Assembly: GCA_964437025.1 (NCBI GenBank)
Contig: CAYTEZ010000001.1
Span: 1-62,268, forward strand
Direction of reading: 5' to 3'
DNA from: an uncultured Gammaproteobacteria bacterium
GTDB lineage: Bacteria > Patescibacteriota > Patescibacteriia > Patescibacteriales > UBA12465
Length of the DNA: 62,268 nt
Under the pieces are notes generated by a model. That model was not told where the DNA came from, did no database searches, and worked only from the letters and a program-made list of their open reading frames with translations. Positions 5,454-53,581 of this stretch are shown here, piece by piece. The stretch's first letter is position 1. Every line of letters starts with the position of its first letter. Position numbers and translations under genes: made by a program.

Positions 5454-6140
5454 TTAGTTAGATCTTATTGATGAATCAATAAAAGCAAACCCGTCATAGA
5501 TGTCCCACGATTTACCAATATAATAACTTCTTAAAGACAACAAAGAGCTGTTAGAATTATTATTAAAACTACCTTCAATATTTTCCCAAACAGATAATAA
5601 AGCTGGATCCATATCTGGTTTTTTTATCGGTTCGTGCATAACAACCATAGTTCTTACCTCCATAGACCTAAAGTCTTTGTTAAAAAATTTGTTTCTGATA
5701 AGACAGGCGGCTTCATAATTAGTGTTAGAAAATCTTAGCTTTTCAGCTTCTAAAAGAATATTTTTAATATTCCTGTTTTTTGTATTTTTGATAATTCCAC
5801 CCTTCAAAACAGCGATGTTATAAATAACACCAATAGTTGGTTTAAAATTTTTAGAAAGTAATACTTGCTTAGTTTTGTTGTCAACACCAATGCCTTTATT
5901 TTCAAAACGATTAATCCACTCGCCGCCGGTCGTGCCATCTGAAATAACCGAAAAACGAATAATGCCGTCTTCTTCATCCCATGAAGAAGTAGATTCAGAC
6001 AAAACCCATTCACCGGAATTAACCAATCTAATAGCTTCTTCAGGATCATTAATCCCTGTTTGTTTCATAATGTTGTTTACTAGGGCATTAAGTTTGCCTA
6101 CTTCAACTTTTTGAATAGTAAATAAAAATTTTTCTTTCAT
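5454..6140 (-). CDS. hypothetical cytoplasmic protein (228 aa), no recognised domain
   Basis: ORF track. A strong SD lies upstream (AAGGAG 6 nt before the ATG). There is no TM segment or signal peptide. It may be weakly related to the 48.7-51.2 kb paralog family (see findings). Confidence 0.6.
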   Translation of the reverse strand: MKEKFLFTIQKVEVGKLNALVNNIMKQTGINDPEEAIRLVNSGEWVLSESTSSWDEEDGIIRFSVISDGTTGGEWINRFENKGIGVDNKTKQVLLSKNFKPTIGVIYNIAVLKGGIIKNTKNRNIKNILLEAEKLRFSNTNYEAACLIRNKFFNKDFRSMEVRTMVVMHEPIKKPDMDPALLSVWENIEGSFNNNSNSSLLSLRSYYIGKSWDIYDGFAFIDSSIRSN

Positions 6141-9364: not shown

Positions 9365-10428
9365 AAATAGCTATAATCAACAACCTATACAAACCATATA
9401 ATAAGGGTGGGGCCGAAAGAGTTTGTGAATCCATGATTAAGGATCTACAAGCTTTAGGTCATTCCTGTTTTGTAATAAGCACTAAACCAAAAGATAAAAC
9501 AGAGATAAATAAAGATCCTCTAACATATTATCTACCATCTAGCTATTATAATCTCTCTACTAAATCTCTCCCCTATCGCTTGTTGTGGCAAATAGCTAAT
9601 CTCTTTAATTTCAATCAAAGAAAAAAATTAAAAAATATTTTATTAAACGAAAAGCCAGATTTAGTTATCACTAATAACTTAATGGGTATTGGTTTGCTAA
9701 CTTTTAGGATTATAAAAAAAATAGGTATTAAACAAGAACACATCTTACACGATGTTCAACTATTCTACCCTTCGGGTTTAATTATTTTTGGGCAAGAAAA
9801 AAAAGCTAATTCAAATTTAGCTAAAATATATCAGATAATAGTAAAAAAAATTATTGGCTCACCTGATACGGTTATTTCTCCTTCACATTGGCTACTAAAA
9901 GAACATATCAATAGAGGCTATTTTAAAAATAGCACAAAACAAGTTAGACCTAATCCAGTAAATATAGAAAAGATAACAACAGAAAAAAGAGAGAATAAAG
10001 AAATAACTGATTTTCTTTTTGTTGGTCAACTAGAAAAACATAAGGGTATTATTTTTCTAATAGAAACCTTCAAACAAATTGAAAAAGAAAATATAAGATT
10101 AAAAATAATAGGTTTAGGCACTCTAGAGGAAGAAATATTGGAGATGATAAAGGATGATAAACGATTTGAATTCTTAGGTAAAAAAGAACCTTTAGAACTG
10201 GCTATAGAATTACAAAGAAGTGACTGTTTAATTGTTCCTTCTCTTTGTTATGAGAACTCCCCTACTATCATCTATGAGGCTAAAAGCTTTGATCTACCGA
10301 TAATAGCCTCAGATTTGGGTGGAATACCAGAATTGATTAATAGAGCTCAGGAAGAGCTGTTTAAACCAGGAAATAAGGCTGATTTAATAGAAAAAATAGA
10401 GAAATTCATGAAAAATCCTAAAAAGTAA
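9361..10428 (+). CDS. family 4 (GT-B) glycosyltransferase
   Basis: FLFVGQLEKHKG and VPSLCYENSPTIIYEAKSFDLPIIASDLGGIPE. A 4-nt ATGA overlap with the preceding GT4 gene suggests translational coupling. Confidence 0.85.
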   Translation: MKIAIINNLYKPYNKGGAERVCESMIKDLQALGHSCFVISTKPKDKTEINKDPLTYYLPSSYYNLSTKSLPYRLLWQIANLFNFNQRKKLKNILLNEKPDLVITNNLMGIGLLTFRIIKKIGIKQEHILHDVQLFYPSGLIIFGQEKKANSNLAKIYQIIVKKIIGSPDTVISPSHWLLKEHINRGYFKNSTKQVRPNPVNIEKITTEKRENKEITDFLFVGQLEKHKGIIFLIETFKQIEKENIRLKIIGLGTLEEEILEMIKDDKRFEFLGKKEPLELAIELQRSDCLIVPSLCYENSPTIIYEAKSFDLPIIASDLGGIPELINRAQEELFKPGNKADLIEKIEKFMKNPKK

Positions 10429-48706: not shown

Positions 48707-48745
48707 TAAAAAATCCCTTGTAGTGTTTAGAACAATCCAAGGGAT
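48707..48745 (-). terminator. intrinsic terminator of the single-domain paralog gene
   Basis: Minus-strand RNA AUCCCUUGG-AUUGUUCUAAACACUA-CAAGGGAU is followed by UUUUUAAU. It shares the ATCCCTTG/CAAGGGAT arms with the terminator at 49376-49436. Confidence 0.5.
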
Positions 48746-48754
48746 AAAAATGTT

Positions 48755-49276
48755 TTAAGACTTTATAATTTGTGGAACAACCACAAAATGACGAACATTT
48801 CCTCGTCCAATTGCAAGGGTATCAAAAGGGAAAGAAAAGATATACAAACCATCCGAGTAAGCCCCAATAAAAACCACCAAGAGATTTTCATTTATAGCTG
48901 GTTTGTCAGAATCTTCTTTCGCCAAAAAAAGAGTCATATAATGATCATCGCAAAACCAATCAGGTTGGGTTTCACAAAAATTATTAATCTGATTTTGTGT
49001 CAGAACTAACTCTTCTAAATCAACACCAAAACTATTAAATACCTCTTTGCCGAAACCATCTCTAAATAATTCGTAAATGCTTACCAATGTTTTTTTAGTT
49101 TCTGGTCCTTTTTTTGTTAAAGGCCAATTATTAAACTCAGAATTAATACCAGCCTTAAAAATTGTCTTCGCATTATAAATCAATTTATTACCATCAGTTG
49201 ATTCAATAGTAACTTCCCTTTTTTCTACATCTAATAACATAAAATGGGTTTGAAAAACAAGTTCTTTTTCCATCAT
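48755..49276 (-). CDS. hypothetical protein, a single copy of the unrecognised ~165-aa domain repeated in the upstream gene
   Basis: TIESTDGNKLIY ... KKGPETKKTLVSIYEL ... LVLTQNQINNFCETQP ... TLFLAKE ... HFVVVPQ aligns block for block with each repeat of the 560-aa ORF. The track start (GTG 49306) lies in the conserved non-coding leader, so the start was trimmed to ATG 49276. Confidence 0.65.
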   Translation of the reverse strand: MMEKELVFQTHFMLLDVEKREVTIESTDGNKLIYNAKTIFKAGINSEFNNWPLTKKGPETKKTLVSIYELFRDGFGKEVFNSFGVDLEELVLTQNQINNFCETQPDWFCDDHYMTLFLAKEDSDKPAINENLLVVFIGAYSDGLYIFSFPFDTLAIGRGNVRHFVVVPQIIKS

Positions 49277-49280
49277 TATT

Positions 49281-49374
49281 TTTTTTAAACGAACTTTTGC
49301 CCGCACTTCCTGACAGGCTTAGGGATATTTGAATATCAAAGTAATATACAACTAATGATGAAAAAGGTCAAGAT
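49281..49374 (-). repeat. copy A of a ~94-bp promoter plus 5'-leader repeat (partner at 51168-51261)
   Basis: By hand alignment it is identical to copy B except at 3 positions (49290, 49357, 49358). The minus strand contains TTGACC (49366-49371), a 17-nt spacer, then TATATT (49343-49348). Confidence 0.8.
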
Positions 49375-49375
49375 A

Positions 49376-49436
49376 TAAAAAATCCCTTGGATTTCAAGAA
49401 CATATATTAATATATGTTCAAGATAATCCAAGGGAT
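49376..49436 (-). terminator. intrinsic terminator of the 560-aa triple-domain gene
   Basis: The long hairpin has arms ATCCCTTGGATT...GAACATATATTA and TAATATATGTTC...AATCCAAGGGAT: 12 + 12 bp around an internal loop. On the minus strand UUUUUUAU follows, and it runs straight into the next -35. Confidence 0.6.
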
Positions 49437-49475
49437 AAAGAAACAAAGTATCAAAGTGATAAAAAGTTAAAGTTT

Positions 49476-51158
49476 TTAAGCAACAAGGAGTTGCGGAACA
49501 ATGATGCGATACTGGTACAGAGCGTCCCAAGCATCATTATCCTCAAGGCGGTCAATGCCGACGCGCAAACCATCGAGGTCAACATACACATGGATCACGA
49601 AATAGTTGTCACCCTCTTTTGTTAAAAACAGAGTAGCATGCCCATTCCGACGAAGCCAATTTGGGTGTTTTTCGCAAAAATCAATAATTTGGTGTTGTGT
49701 CATCAACAACTTGTCCAAATCAACATTGAAACCTTGAAAAATTTGTTTTCCAGTACCACCTTTTACCAACTCATAAACACTTACTGGTGTTTTTTTAGTT
49801 GCAACACCCTTTTTGGCCAATCCGTAATTCTTAAAATCTAAATTGATATAAGATTTAAAGATTGACCCAGAACCATAGATGAAACGACTTCCATCTGTAG
49901 CGTCAAGGTTAATTTCTGAATTGCCAGAAATCAATTTCGCATGAGAAGTTTCAGCTAAGGGTAATTTAACAATTTCCTCTTCTTGAAATTGTATTGGAAC
50001 TATAACGCGATAGCATTGCAAACCAAAATAAAAAACATCCTCATTAAAACGGGCAACGCGGGTGCTTAACCTGGTGTCCGAACTAGAAATATTAGCCCAC
50101 ACGCTAACAATAAAATAACAACCTTGCTCCTTAATCAAAAACAGAGTAGCTTGTCCATCTCGAAAGCAAGACAAATGCTTTTCGCAGAAATTAATAACCT
50201 GATGTTGCGTAAAAGCTAACCTTTCTAATCCAACTTTAAAGCTTTTAAAAAGTTTCTTTCCTGTTCCATGTTTTGTTGATTCATAAATTGAAACCAAAGT
50301 TTTTTCTGTAGCACCACCTTTTTTGTTTAATCTAAAATCTTCAAATTTTTGATCAATATCCGATTCAAAAGTGAGCTTGGCTTCAGAAATAAATCTACTA
50401 CCATCAGTGGCGTCAAGACTAATTTCTTTATCACTAGAAATTAGCTCTAGGTGAGAAGTTTCCATTAAGGGTAATTTAAAAATTTCTTCTCTTCTAAATT
50501 GTGTCGGAACAACAATGTAATGATGACTAACAAAAATATTTTCATGATTAAAATGATGAACATTAACCCATAAACCATTGGAGTGAATCTTTACCCAAAC
50601 AATAAAATATTTATAATATTCTTTAATCAAAAAAAGTGTAACACCATTTTGACAAAGCAGAGATGGGTGTTTTTCGCAAAAATCAATAATTTGATTCTGT
50701 GTTAACACTAGTTCGTCTAACTTAACAAAAAATCTTTTAAAAAATTCTTGTCCTGTCCCTGGTTTTGTTGATTCATAAACGCTTACTAATGTTTTTTCGG
50801 TTGGAATACTTTTTTTGCCCAGATTATATCTCTTAAAATTTTCTTCAATTTTGTCTTTAAAAGTTGGTTCTGCTTCAGAAATAAATCTGCTACCATCGGT
50901 AGCTTCAAGGTTAATTTCTGAGTTTCCAGAAATTAATTTTAAGTTAGAGGTTTGAGAAATAACCTGCAAGGGTCTTTTACTAAATTTTTTATCTCTTTTA
51001 AGAAATTTACCCTCTATGTTGCACTGCAGACTGTCTATGAAGTCCTCTGGATCAAAGGGACATCCACTTTCTTGACGAAGTTGACGTTTCAACTCCAAAA
51101 TTTTACCATCAATACGAATGTATTGCTCGCCGGTGACATTAAATTTTTCTTTTGCCAT
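49476..51158 (-). CDS. hypothetical protein: ~57-aa head plus three tandem copies of an unrecognised ~165-aa domain
   Basis: The repeats are at about aa 58-220, 221-390 and 391-560 (nt 50499-50987, 49989-50498, 49479-49988). Shared blocks are LISGNSEINL(E/D)ATDGSRFI, KKG..T.KT.VS(V/I)YE, GTG, TQ(N/H)Q(I/V)I(D/N)FCEKH, TLFL(I/T)KE, and Y/H-x-(I/V)(I/V)VP.Q. There is no TM segment or signal peptide. Confidence 0.7.
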   Translation of the reverse strand: MAKEKFNVTGEQYIRIDGKILELKRQLRQESGCPFDPEDFIDSLQCNIEGKFLKRDKKFSKRPLQVISQTSNLKLISGNSEINLEATDGSRFISEAEPTFKDKIEENFKRYNLGKKSIPTEKTLVSVYESTKPGTGQEFFKRFFVKLDELVLTQNQIIDFCEKHPSLLCQNGVTLFLIKEYYKYFIVWVKIHSNGLWVNVHHFNHENIFVSHHYIVVPTQFRREEIFKLPLMETSHLELISSDKEISLDATDGSRFISEAKLTFESDIDQKFEDFRLNKKGGATEKTLVSIYESTKHGTGKKLFKSFKVGLERLAFTQHQVINFCEKHLSCFRDGQATLFLIKEQGCYFIVSVWANISSSDTRLSTRVARFNEDVFYFGLQCYRVIVPIQFQEEEIVKLPLAETSHAKLISGNSEINLDATDGSRFIYGSGSIFKSYINLDFKNYGLAKKGVATKKTPVSVYELVKGGTGKQIFQGFNVDLDKLLMTQHQIIDFCEKHPNWLRRNGHATLFLTKEGDNYFVIHVYVDLDGLRVGIDRLEDNDAWDALYQYRIIVPQLLVA

Positions 51159-51167
51159 GACAATATT

Positions 51168-51261
51168 TTTTTTAAATGAACTTTTGCCCGCACTTCCTGA
51201 CAGGCTTAGGGATATTTGAATATCAAAGTAATATACAACTAATAGTGAAAAAGGTCAAGAT
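51168..51261 (-). repeat. copy B of the ~94-bp promoter plus 5'-leader repeat
   Basis: See copy A. Here -35 TTGACC is at 51253-51258 and -10 TATATT at 51230-51235. Its distal end overlaps the stop codon of the histidine kinase gene (51261-51263). Confidence 0.8.
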
Positions 51262-52067
51262 TAAAAACAAACCCTAAACACTGAGCCCTGACCTAGGGTA
51301 CTTTCTACTTCAATCCTGGCCTTGAGATGATTTTCGGCTATATCTTTAACCACTGCTAAACCTAAACCACAGTTTTTACTATCCTCACTCTTTATATCCT
51401 TAAGAGAGAAAAAGGTTTCAAATATCTTTTTTAAATATTTATCGGAAATACCACAACCATTATCAGAAACCTCTAATATGAATTCCTTGTCCCTGTAATA
51501 TGTGCTAACCTTTATTCTCCTATTCTCTTCTCTCTCAGAAAAAGATTCAATAGCATTAGCTAGTAGATTTAGTAAAACACGAAAAAACATATTTCCGTTT
51601 CCTTTAAGCAAACAAGTATTGGTTAATGATAATTCTAAATTAATATTTTTGTTTACAAAATAGAAATTGAAAATTGATAGAGCATTATTAATTTCTTGAT
51701 TAATATCAAAGGTATCAAGCTCCTTATCCCCCTTCAAACAATGCCTATAGTTTTTTAGTAAGCTAATAATTCTCTGATTTATATCCAAGCCCTGACTGCT
51801 TAGCTTCTCAACCGATAGAGCATCATGAGAATTAATTTTAATCTGTTGCCAAGCTAAATTAGAAGCACTTAAAATATTGCAAACATCATGATATACCCCC
51901 AAAGAAAGCTTCCCAGCTTCAGCTAAATTATGTTCTCTAGACATTTTTCTAAAACAATCCTTGAGTAAACAAGAATGAGAATATCTATACCTTAGACAGC
52001 GATACACTAAAAAAACCACTGCCACAAACAAAAATGAGATAACGTGGAGATAAATAATTCTAAACAT
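51261..52067 (-). CDS. small membrane-anchored histidine kinase without an obvious sensor domain
   Basis: One N-terminal TM (IIYLHVISFLFVAVVFLVY), an H-box LGVYHDVCNILSA, an N-box LLNLLANAIES, and G-boxes SDNGCGI and GLGLAVVKDIAE. There is no adjacent response regulator. Confidence 0.8.
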   Translation of the reverse strand: MFRIIYLHVISFLFVAVVFLVYRCLRYRYSHSCLLKDCFRKMSREHNLAEAGKLSLGVYHDVCNILSASNLAWQQIKINSHDALSVEKLSSQGLDINQRIISLLKNYRHCLKGDKELDTFDINQEINNALSIFNFYFVNKNINLELSLTNTCLLKGNGNMFFRVLLNLLANAIESFSEREENRRIKVSTYYRDKEFILEVSDNGCGISDKYLKKIFETFFSLKDIKSEDSKNCGLGLAVVKDIAENHLKARIEVESTLGQGSVFRVCF

Positions 52068-53424: not shown

Positions 53425-53498
53425 AGCCGCCTGTCGGGTTCGAACCGACGACCTACTGTTTACAAGACAGTCGCTCTGGCCAGCTGAGCTAAGGCGGC
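53425..53498 (-). tRNA. tRNA-Thr (anticodon UGU)
   Basis: The minus strand reads GCCGCCTTAGCTCAGCTGGCCAGAGCGACTGTCTTGTAAACAGTAGGTCGTCGGTTCGAACCCGACAGGCGGCT. It folds as a cloverleaf with acceptor GCCGCCT/AGGCGGC, anticodon loop CTTGTAA and T-loop GGTTCGAA. The 3' CCA is not encoded. Confidence 0.9.
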
Positions 53499-53508
53499 AG
53501 TATTTATG

Positions 53509-53581
53509 TGCGCCCAGCAGGATTCGAACCTGCGACCTTCTGCTTAAAAGGCAGCTGCTCTACCGACTGAGCTATGAGCGC
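53509..53581 (-). tRNA. tRNA-Lys (anticodon UUU)
   Basis: The minus strand reads GCGCTCATAGCTCAGTCGGTAGAGCAGCTGCCTTTTAAGCAGAAGGTCGCAGGTTCGAATCCTGCTGGGCGCA. The anticodon loop is CTTTTAA and the T-loop is GGTTCGAA. The 3' CCA is not encoded. Confidence 0.9.

Follow-up and report, generated by a model that had tools for sequence, protein, structure and literature searches.

Diversity-generating retroelements (DGRs) are, to our knowledge, the only targeted protein-hypermutation machines of prokaryotes. They are especially common in Patescibacteria, and the targets that they diversify there are barely known. The locus considered here lies on contig CAYTEZ010000001.1, a stretch of 62,268 nt that was analysed over its full length (the window), and consists of two gene cassettes on the minus strand that together encode four copies of an unannotated domain of ~165 amino acids (aa). 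In all likelihood this domain is the ligand-binding module of a DGR variable-protein family specific to Patescibacteria, and the window carries one of the loci of this family, with the retroelement core missing.

The solved DGR variable proteins, namely Mtd of a Bordetella phage, TvpA of Treponema, archaeal AvpA and TaqVP of Thermus, all adopt C-type lectin folds (PMC2408619; PMC5006420; PMC6328139), and the unknown variable region (VR) domains of the candidate phyla radiation (CPR) were expected to represent novel versions of the C-type lectin fold (Roux et al., 2021; PMC8144416). In phage BPP-1 a hairpin located after the VR promotes retrohoming (PMC3240598). Targets can be non-adjacent to, or remote from, the retroelement, with up to seven such genes in Treponema (PMC5758913), and links to signalling have been described for the regulatory targets of cyanobacteria (PMC7517822) and the putative antigen sensors of multicellular bacteria (PMC10907252).

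The domain family and its link to retroelements

The large open reading frame (ORF) of the window encodes a protein of 560 aa, and the small ORF encodes a single domain copy without a head (S; Table 1), which would comprise 183 aa instead of 173 aa if started at an upstream GTG. The layout that had been read from the sequence alone, a ~57-aa head followed by three tandem domains (R1, R2 and R3) and one free-standing copy, is borne out by the ORF calls and by the alignment of the copies, in which every conserved block listed at that time is present. R1–R3 share ~50% aa identity with each other and 36–45% with S, and BLASTP scores among the copies range from 94 to 151 bits, far above chance. Searches of the two proteins and of the family profile against Pfam, NCBIfam, PHROGs and PADLOC returned nothing credible, the only matches being far below the family cut-offs, and PADLOC likewise had no match for the neighbouring histidine kinase (HK)-like protein. 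As the window proteins had no match in the PDB sequence search either, and BFVD added none, the domain is indeed unrecognised by the libraries searched. Neither of the two proteins has a predicted transmembrane segment or signal peptide, in agreement with the sequence-only reading.

A profile built from the four copies retrieved 27 close homologues, most of which are ~220 aa long with a variable head and one domain; the few with a source name are Pacebacteria or Parcubacteria. An exhaustive hidden Markov model search yielded 2,592 cluster representatives, of which 1,048 reached E ≤ 1e-30. Two to three tandem domains are present in 7 of the 150 top cluster representatives, and only 9 of 152 family heads contain a transmembrane segment or signal peptide. 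A match to a housekeeping domain, or a lack of homologues with conserved frames, had been named beforehand as arguing against a functional novelty; what was found is no housekeeping domain and thousands of homologues with intact frames. Many metagenome-assembled genome records among the family loci (L004, L006, L007, L009, L010, L014, L017, L018, L022 and L030) are titled “uncultured Gammaproteobacteria bacterium,” yet judging from the other family members they are probably Patescibacteria with placeholder or mis-assigned titles.

The genomic surroundings of the relatives connect the family with DGRs. In L003, which is syntenic with the window, the gene order is DnaB, MiaB-like radical-SAM, HK-like, family gene, template repeat (TR), bAvd on the opposite strand, RVT_1 reverse transcriptase (RT), a second family gene (P0003) and MgsA. 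The TR, whose translation is YIFVVNVNVNSDDLNVNVNRFENDNVWNAKYQHRIVVPQL, can be aligned to the 3′-terminal parts of the family genes on either side, from which it differs at TR adenines only. The Avd of this locus matches the PHROG family “Avd protein of DGR,” as well as NCBIfam NF033474 (“diversity-generating retroelement protein Avd”) at 1e-19 and 70.6 bits, just below the 80-bit cut-off. Altogether 110 loci were fetched, of which 72 extend 1,300 nt or more downstream of the gene and are informative; Avd and/or RT lies directly downstream of the family gene in 39 of these 72, mostly with a recognisable TR. When TR/VR mismatches were counted in a fixed 111-nt frame over 22 distinct pairs, 323 of 332 were located at template adenines, corresponding to a mismatch rate of 52% at A and of no more than 0.6% at C, G and T. 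The VR comprises the C-terminal 37 codons with ten mutable codons, and the ten Asn codons of the TR coincide exactly with the ten highest-entropy columns of the family (167 members). The domain is the target (variable) module of a DGR, and no partner gene is conserved across the family besides the DGR core. The C-terminal (Y/H)-x-(I/V)(I/V)VP.Q block, which had been spotted in the sequence, is present; its role as the invariant 3′ end of the 37-codon VR had been missed.

AlphaFold2 models R3 with a mean predicted local distance difference test (pLDDT) score of 92 and a predicted template modelling score of 0.88, and R1 with a pLDDT above 90, while the two helices of the head reach 60–74. On the model the VR covers two long adjacent strands, the next loop and the last strand, with the variable residues alternating along the strands and running on into that loop, so that they would form one hypervariable surface patch and thus a binding surface, for which a capacity of ~15^10 variants is obtained by arithmetic.

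In the canonical element, as seen in relatives, the family gene is followed by the TR, avd on the opposite strand and the RT. The TR encodes FFVANVNVNSDGLNVNVNRFENDNVWNAENRHRVVVPQL, and error-prone reverse transcription at template adenines rewrites ~ten AAY (Asn) codons within the last 37. In the window the large gene comprises the two-helix family head with three tandem domains and the small gene one domain, each with the family promoter, a structured leader RNA and a terminator hairpin. An ancestral target with a head and one domain, as in the syntenic L001, would have expanded by duplication or fusion of cassettes, with recombination at the conserved ends. The retroelement core would have been lost or would reside elsewhere in the genome; in the latter case R3 alone might still be rewritten, since no other copy has kept both the 3′ end and the hairpin intact.

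Several points weigh against this reading. RT, Avd and TR were not found within the window (best tblastn E = 0.75), and there was no VR-only match as would be produced by a TR. The VR of R3 aligns over 114 nt with the nearest available TR, that of L003, and 17 of the 114 positions differ at non-adenine sites, so that any cognate TR must be another one. The structural check that had been proposed, AlphaFold and Foldseek on one repeat, gave a confident model and no significant match, as Foldseek searches of two independent models against PDB (best E values of 0.42–0.56) and of the R3 model against BFVD had best E values of 0.29–0.56 overall. A DGR variable protein is absent from the 50 best PDB matches listed for each model, and the sole lectin-like match, the carbohydrate-recognition domain of BDCA2, is non-significant (target-normalised TM-score 0.41, E = 0.78, probability 0.25). 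The order of secondary-structure elements in the model would be compatible with a minimal C-type-lectin-like core. Furthermore, the ligand-binding role is putative, the three-domain ORF may have arisen by either duplication or fusion, and current diversification and retroelement loss are both candidate states of the window organism.

The variable regions of the window and their possible history

The VR-equivalents of the four copies are in different states. Across the family the GC content of the VR exceeds that of the domain core by 0.15 on average. This excess is 0.13 in R3, 0.10 in R2 and 0.09 in S, while R1 has a value of −0.04, the lowest among 106 family copies, with a VR GC content of 0.26. 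At non-A sites the identity to the consensus TR, for which the family range is 0.65–0.86, is 0.72 for R3 and 0.55 for both S and R1, the latter being below every regular family VR. R2 was left out of this scoring; it has an indel relative to the 37-codon frame, which leaves a canonical TR unable to overwrite it cleanly. The R3 end TATCGCATCATTGTTCCGCAACT matches the L003 VR/TR end closely (~20 of 23 positions by eye), and S has a diverged VR end followed by a shortened hairpin. When R3 is compared with L001 and L003b, the VR has diverged less at synonymous sites than the core (0.24 vs 0.51 and 0.37 vs 0.74, respectively), as expected of a segment copied from a conserved template, while in R1, R2 and S it is similar in the VR and the core. 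The ratio of nonsynonymous to synonymous divergence (dN/dS) among the repeats, proposed as a further check, is 0.1–0.5 for the core in every pairwise comparison and 0.25–0.48 for S against the other copies, so that all four copies encode constrained, working proteins. Purifying selection acts on the core of each of the four domains, and R3 is the sole copy still resembling a templated VR, whereas the specificities of R1, R2 and S have become frozen or have decayed. R3 would also be the only one still rewritable.

One account of this pattern, which comes close to an even chance without quite reaching it, is that the core was deleted in the lineage and that the window holds a fully orphaned relic array, the fixed binders of which now change through duplication, fusion and cassette exchange alone. 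Relatives offer a precedent for a locus with and without the core: the same pair of family genes flanks the site in the related genomes L009 and L011, and the 1,788-nt TR-avd-RT segment of L011 (L011:999-2787) is replaced by ~22 nt in L009 (L009:8541-8563), which is a clean presence/absence polymorphism of the DGR core with both targets kept. In addition, truncated RT remnants beside intact family genes in L086 (L086:4609-4719) and L106 (L106:4470-4994, also with Avd) look like decaying DGR cores. The clear decay of R1, R2 and S is in line with an orphaned array, as is the variation of cassette content among close relatives described below. The VR of R3 argues in the other direction, as it has not drifted to genome composition, unlike that of R1, and the 199-nt intergenic stretch between the window cassettes contains the terminator, promoter and leader only, with no detectable remnant of TR, avd or RT.

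The exchange of cassettes can be followed in relatives. R3 is the orthologue of P0002, the single domain of the syntenic L001 gene (70.6% identity), to which R1 and R2 are 57.5 and 46.5% identical; by these values R1 and R2 are faster-evolving extra copies. An origin of S as a recent tandem copy of the large gene was considered and is ruled out by its low identity to R1–R3 and by its insertion KEDSDKPAINENL, which is typical of the family or subfamily. Judged from its sequence S is an old paralogue, so that the near-identical promoter and leader in front of it need their own explanation, by conversion/recombination or by constraint: the coding repeats have 64–73% nt identity, as against 94% for the upstream regions. 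L201/L202 come from an organism very closely related to that of the window, and L201 is 89% identical to the window (nt) in the 3′ end of the radical-SAM gene, 92% in the HK-like gene (97% aa), 87% in the promoter plus leader and 90% in the inter-cassette terminator, promoter and leader; its variable gene P0013, with a head, one domain and a degenerate VR, is only 67.5% identical (46% aa). Downstream of P0013 follows a second cassette, the start of which (L201:2117-2278) is 98% nt identical to P0002 (L001:6001-6162), although these genomes are diverged: the L001 HK is only 81% aa identical to that of the window, and the HK genes of the L201 and L001 lineages are ~81% identical (aa). L202, which has the same cassette as L201, shares its source metagenome MUNK22-1 with L001, which suggests cassette transfer between co-occurring populations. 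Since the regulatory ends are at genome-background identity and the coding sequences have either been replaced or diverged to an extreme degree, cassettes appear to be exchanged by recombination at their ends, and this would explain how a 94% identical promoter and leader can precede genes that are 36–45% identical.

Alternatively, a DGR core outside the window could rewrite R3, and possibly S, in trans, making the window a live multi-target locus; this is a realistic option that we are nonetheless inclined to doubt. It would account for the GC excess and TR-like sequence of the R3 VR, both typical of the family, and for its synonymous divergence being lower than in the core. Core-less family genes have a VR GC excess equal to that of core-linked genes (0.146 without and 0.151 with an adjacent core), and within near-identical clusters 6 of ~10 residue differences lie in the VR, among them all 4 of P0017/P0179 from a core-less locus, which gives weak support. 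Remote targets are moreover documented for other DGRs (PMC5758913). By contrast, no core is present within 62 kb, and the variable-site codons of R3 together with its non-A differences to the L003 TR fit a recently templated orphan equally well.

A wider reading that would join these elements must be considered rather unlikely: the family would be a non-C-type-lectin DGR scaffold, the pseudoknotted leader a ligand- or protein-responsive switch, and the core-less arrays stored past specificities that are exchanged among co-occurring Patescibacteria at the leader and terminator ends and perhaps act as input modules for a sensor-less HK. The sequence-only reading had instead favoured a conflict or immunity system that stands on its own, is undescribed and has no relation to known machinery, which is now highly improbable. 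The absence of credible matches in the sequence and structure databases named above, the local amplification and the rapid turnover of the locus would all agree with it, and its notion of an interaction-type, fast-evolving family holds; the relatives, however, are DGR target proteins, with DGR cores at more than half of the informative loci and adenine-specific TR/VR differences, and the only other recurrent neighbour, the HK-like gene, is limited to one subfamily. Finally, three of the four VR-equivalents are degenerate, as in pseudogene debris of a former DGR locus, but non-functional ORFs are scarcely conceivable given the intact 560-codon frame, the low core dN/dS, the conserved promoters, leader and terminators, and the confident models of R1 and R3.

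Cassette ends, leader RNA and neighbouring genes

The regulatory ends of the two cassettes are those of the family. The promoter is identical in both cassettes and 87% identical in L201, and the upstream regions (49274-49380 and 51161-51267) share 94% identity over 107 nt, so that the near-identity seen in the sequence-only reading stands, with a length of ~107 nt and not the 94 nt given there. Its terminators on shared ATCCCTTG/CAAGGGAT arms were recovered as a hairpin with a T run at the end of both genes, and as promoter, leader and terminator are common to the two genes, entire expression units are repeated and not the ORFs alone. The large-gene terminator recurs in almost identical form after the L001 gene and after the genes of L003 that are linked to the DGR, and even distant members of the family retain its stem base UCCCUYGG/CCRAGGGA, whether or not a core is present. 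By analogy with BPP-1, a dual role of the hairpin in termination and retrohoming is possible.

The leaders of the two cassettes contain a putative structured RNA, the copies of which differ by a single substitution within the motif. The same layout is found upstream of many family genes and comprises a P0 hairpin (identified by eye), a CCY triplet, 2–3 A residues and a 5–6-bp P1 hairpin with the loop consensus YRGGRAGU. The P1 stem occurs in several variants (UCUAC/GUAGA, UCUGC/GCAGA, UUUCGC/GCGAAA, AUCAGC/GCUGAU and, in L201, ACUCAC/GUGGGU), and the stem of the window includes G·U pairs that are possible on the coding strand only. P1 is predicted by RNAalifold with compensatory changes on both sides in five of six pairs; 96.9% of the P1 cells are paired, and the covariation score of the hand-registered alignment was reached by 0 of 500 shuffles. 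In copy 1 the CCU triplet can pair with AGG of the P1 loop (51198-51196), which would result in an H-type pseudoknot. This CCY/RGG pairing has a 3-bp core with a swap from C-G to U-A in 6 of 17 sequences of a hand-curated alignment, plus optional extensions, and provides moderate support for the pseudoknot.

A covariance model detected 27 copies, each directly upstream of a family gene on the coding strand, and 0 elsewhere in 740 kb. The motif is also present at all family genes that were fetched later and stood outside the model (two in L201, a single one in L203 and in L205, and those of the duplicate contigs L202 and L204), and sites in relatives include L001:5918-5988, L003:3261-3332 and 5919-5989, L201:1182-1250 and 2040-2108, and L203:1334-1403, among others. 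Rfam 15, searched at the gathering score and with E up to 10, returned nothing at the leaders, only two tRNAs and chance snoRNA-like matches. The single-sequence fold of the leader is not significant (z = −0.65), so that the evidence for this RNA rests on comparison and not on thermodynamics. These comparisons point to a family-specific structured RNA and a candidate new cis-regulatory motif. An occurrence in viral contigs was rejected, as 90 DNA-pattern matches corresponded to about the chance expectation and none was confirmed by the covariance model.

Branches of the family that lack CCY/GGRAG share another upstream sequence, (G)CUGUGRC followed by an A-rich stretch (L016:7740, L029:7752, L020:7833 and 10599, L025:7827), which reads GCUGUGGCGAA in L029 and CUGUGACUA in L020 and L025 and may be a second leader motif. 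Separately, a GTTCATTTAA-like box is located between the leader hairpin and the start codon in the window (51178-51169), L011 (~2823-2835) and L006 (~10380-10395), and is common to first-position genes and to the short-head genes downstream of the RT, which are otherwise without the pseudoknot motif.

The stop of the HK-like gene abuts the promoter of the large gene, and this gene probably lies outside the cassette. It is located directly upstream of the variable gene throughout the subfamily with a MATKF head (window, L001, L003, L031/L032 and L201/L202; positions L001:5014-5820, L003:2135-3094 and L201:395-1159), and the adjacency is limited to this subfamily. A functional coupling between the HK-like protein and the variable protein is a matter of speculation.

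Table 1. Features of the two cassettes and of their surroundings in the window, with strand and basis of the assignment.
Feature	Position	Strand	Basis or remark
Large ORF, 560 aa	49476..51158	-	ORF call
Head, two-helix, aa 1-57	50988-51158	-	Part of the 560-aa ORF
R1, aa 58-220	50499-50987	-	Domain copy in the 560-aa ORF
R2, aa 221-390	49989-50498	-	Domain copy in the 560-aa ORF
R3, aa 391-560	49479-49988	-	Domain copy in the 560-aa ORF
R1 VR-equivalent, YFIVWVKIHSNGLWVNVHHFNHENIFVSHHYIVVPTQ	50499..50620	-	Alignment; decayed, 2 aa shorter than the canonical frame
R2 VR-equivalent, YFIVSVWANISSSDTRLSTRVARFNEDVFYFGLQCYRVIVPIQ	49989..50115	-	Alignment; with insertion
R3 VR-equivalent, 37 codons, FVIHVYVDLDGLRVGIDRLEDNDAWDALYQYRIIVPQ	49491..49601	-	Alignment to family VR/TR
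Small ORF S, single domain without head, 173 aa from ATG 49276	48755..49276	-	ORF call
S VR-equivalent, LVVFIGAYSDGLYIFSFPFDTLAIGRGNVRHFVVVPQ	within 48755..49276	-	Alignment; decayed
Promoter, large gene: TTGACC (51258-51253), 17-nt spacer, TATATT (51235-51230)	51230..51258	-	Sequence motif
Promoter, small gene: TTGACC, 17-nt spacer, TATATT	49343..49371	-	Sequence motif
Leader RNA, copy 1	51170..51238	-	Covariance model, 59.6 bits
P0 hairpin GAUAU-UCAA-AUAUC, copy 1	51224-51211	-	By eye
CCU triplet, copy 1	51210-51208	-	Sequence
P1 hairpin GCCUGU/GCGGGC, copy 1	51205-51200 / 51191-51186	-	Covariation
P1 loop CAGGAAGU, copy 1	51199-51192	-	Sequence
Leader RNA, copy 2	49283..49351	-	Covariance model, 58.2 bits
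Terminator hairpin, large gene: AUCCCUUGGAUU...AAUCCAAGGGAU and U run	49377..49436	-	RNAfold
Terminator hairpin, small gene: AUCCCUUG...CAAGGGAU and U run	48708..48745	-	Sequence and folding; shortened form of the family hairpin
HK-like gene, 268 aa, membrane-anchored, without sensor domain	51261..52067	-	Pfam HATPase_c, E = 2.6e-20
Two adjacent tRNA genes between the radical-SAM gene and dnaB	53425-53581	-	Sole credible Rfam matches in the window

Comparison with known systems

Small H-type pseudoknots are used as cis-regulatory RNAs by the preQ1-I and SAM-II riboswitches. The putative leader RNA resembles them in its size of ~30 nt, its location in the 5′ leader, the pairing of a 5′ strand with the loop of a 5–6-bp hairpin and its short, conserved connecting loops. 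It differs from them in that it has no evident ligand, expression platform or Rfam match and is placed ~30 nt upstream of the ATG, where it overlaps neither the Shine-Dalgarno sequence nor the start codon. As a small element specific to the family genes, it is an experimentally tractable candidate for a regulatory RNA.

With respect to signalling-linked DGR targets, the likeness consists of a diversified binding protein adjoining a signalling gene, here one for a sensor-less HK-like protein, whereas in the window the two are separate genes, their adjacency is restricted to one subfamily and any interaction of their products is putative. The window gene further resembles remote targets such as those of Treponema in having a VR-like 3′ end with a hairpin and no adjacent RT; it differs in that no cognate TR is known for it and three of the four copies no longer match TR-type sequence.

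The relatives of the window share with the solved DGR variable proteins a C-terminal, TR-templated VR in which changes are confined to the template adenines of AAY codons, a hairpin after the invariant 3′ end of this VR, and Avd and RT adjoining the gene. The differences are the lack of a sequence match or significant structural match and the placement of the variable residues, which alternate on two long β strands; in the window, furthermore, TR, Avd and RT are missing and one ORF contains the domain in triplicate. That a confidently modelled structure should lack any detectable relative is a challenge to the rule of a C-type lectin fold in all DGR variable proteins, or at the least a stretch of it.

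Close counterparts are the chromosomal DGRs of Patescibacteria/CPR (“clade 2” of Roux et al., 2021, PMC8144416; the unknown VR classes UVR1-6 of Wu et al., 2018, PMC5758913), which come from the same host group and have small uncharacterised targets in the order target-TR-avd-RT, and the window family is very probably already contained in these catalogues. The DGR system itself is thus already known, and the window is a target array without a retroelement on an uncharacterised VR scaffold. Core-less multi-domain arrays and the leader RNA do not appear in those catalogues (PMC5758913; PMC8144416), to which the present analysis adds a very large unannotated family tied to DGRs, the definition of its 37-codon VR with ten mutable codons, a confident model without structural relative, frozen internal VRs, cassette swapping and the candidate leader RNA. 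As an example of what becomes of targets where the retroelement core is missing, the window amounts to a natural record of DGR gain and loss, in which one copy has stayed template-like while others freeze, multiply and are swapped among close relatives.

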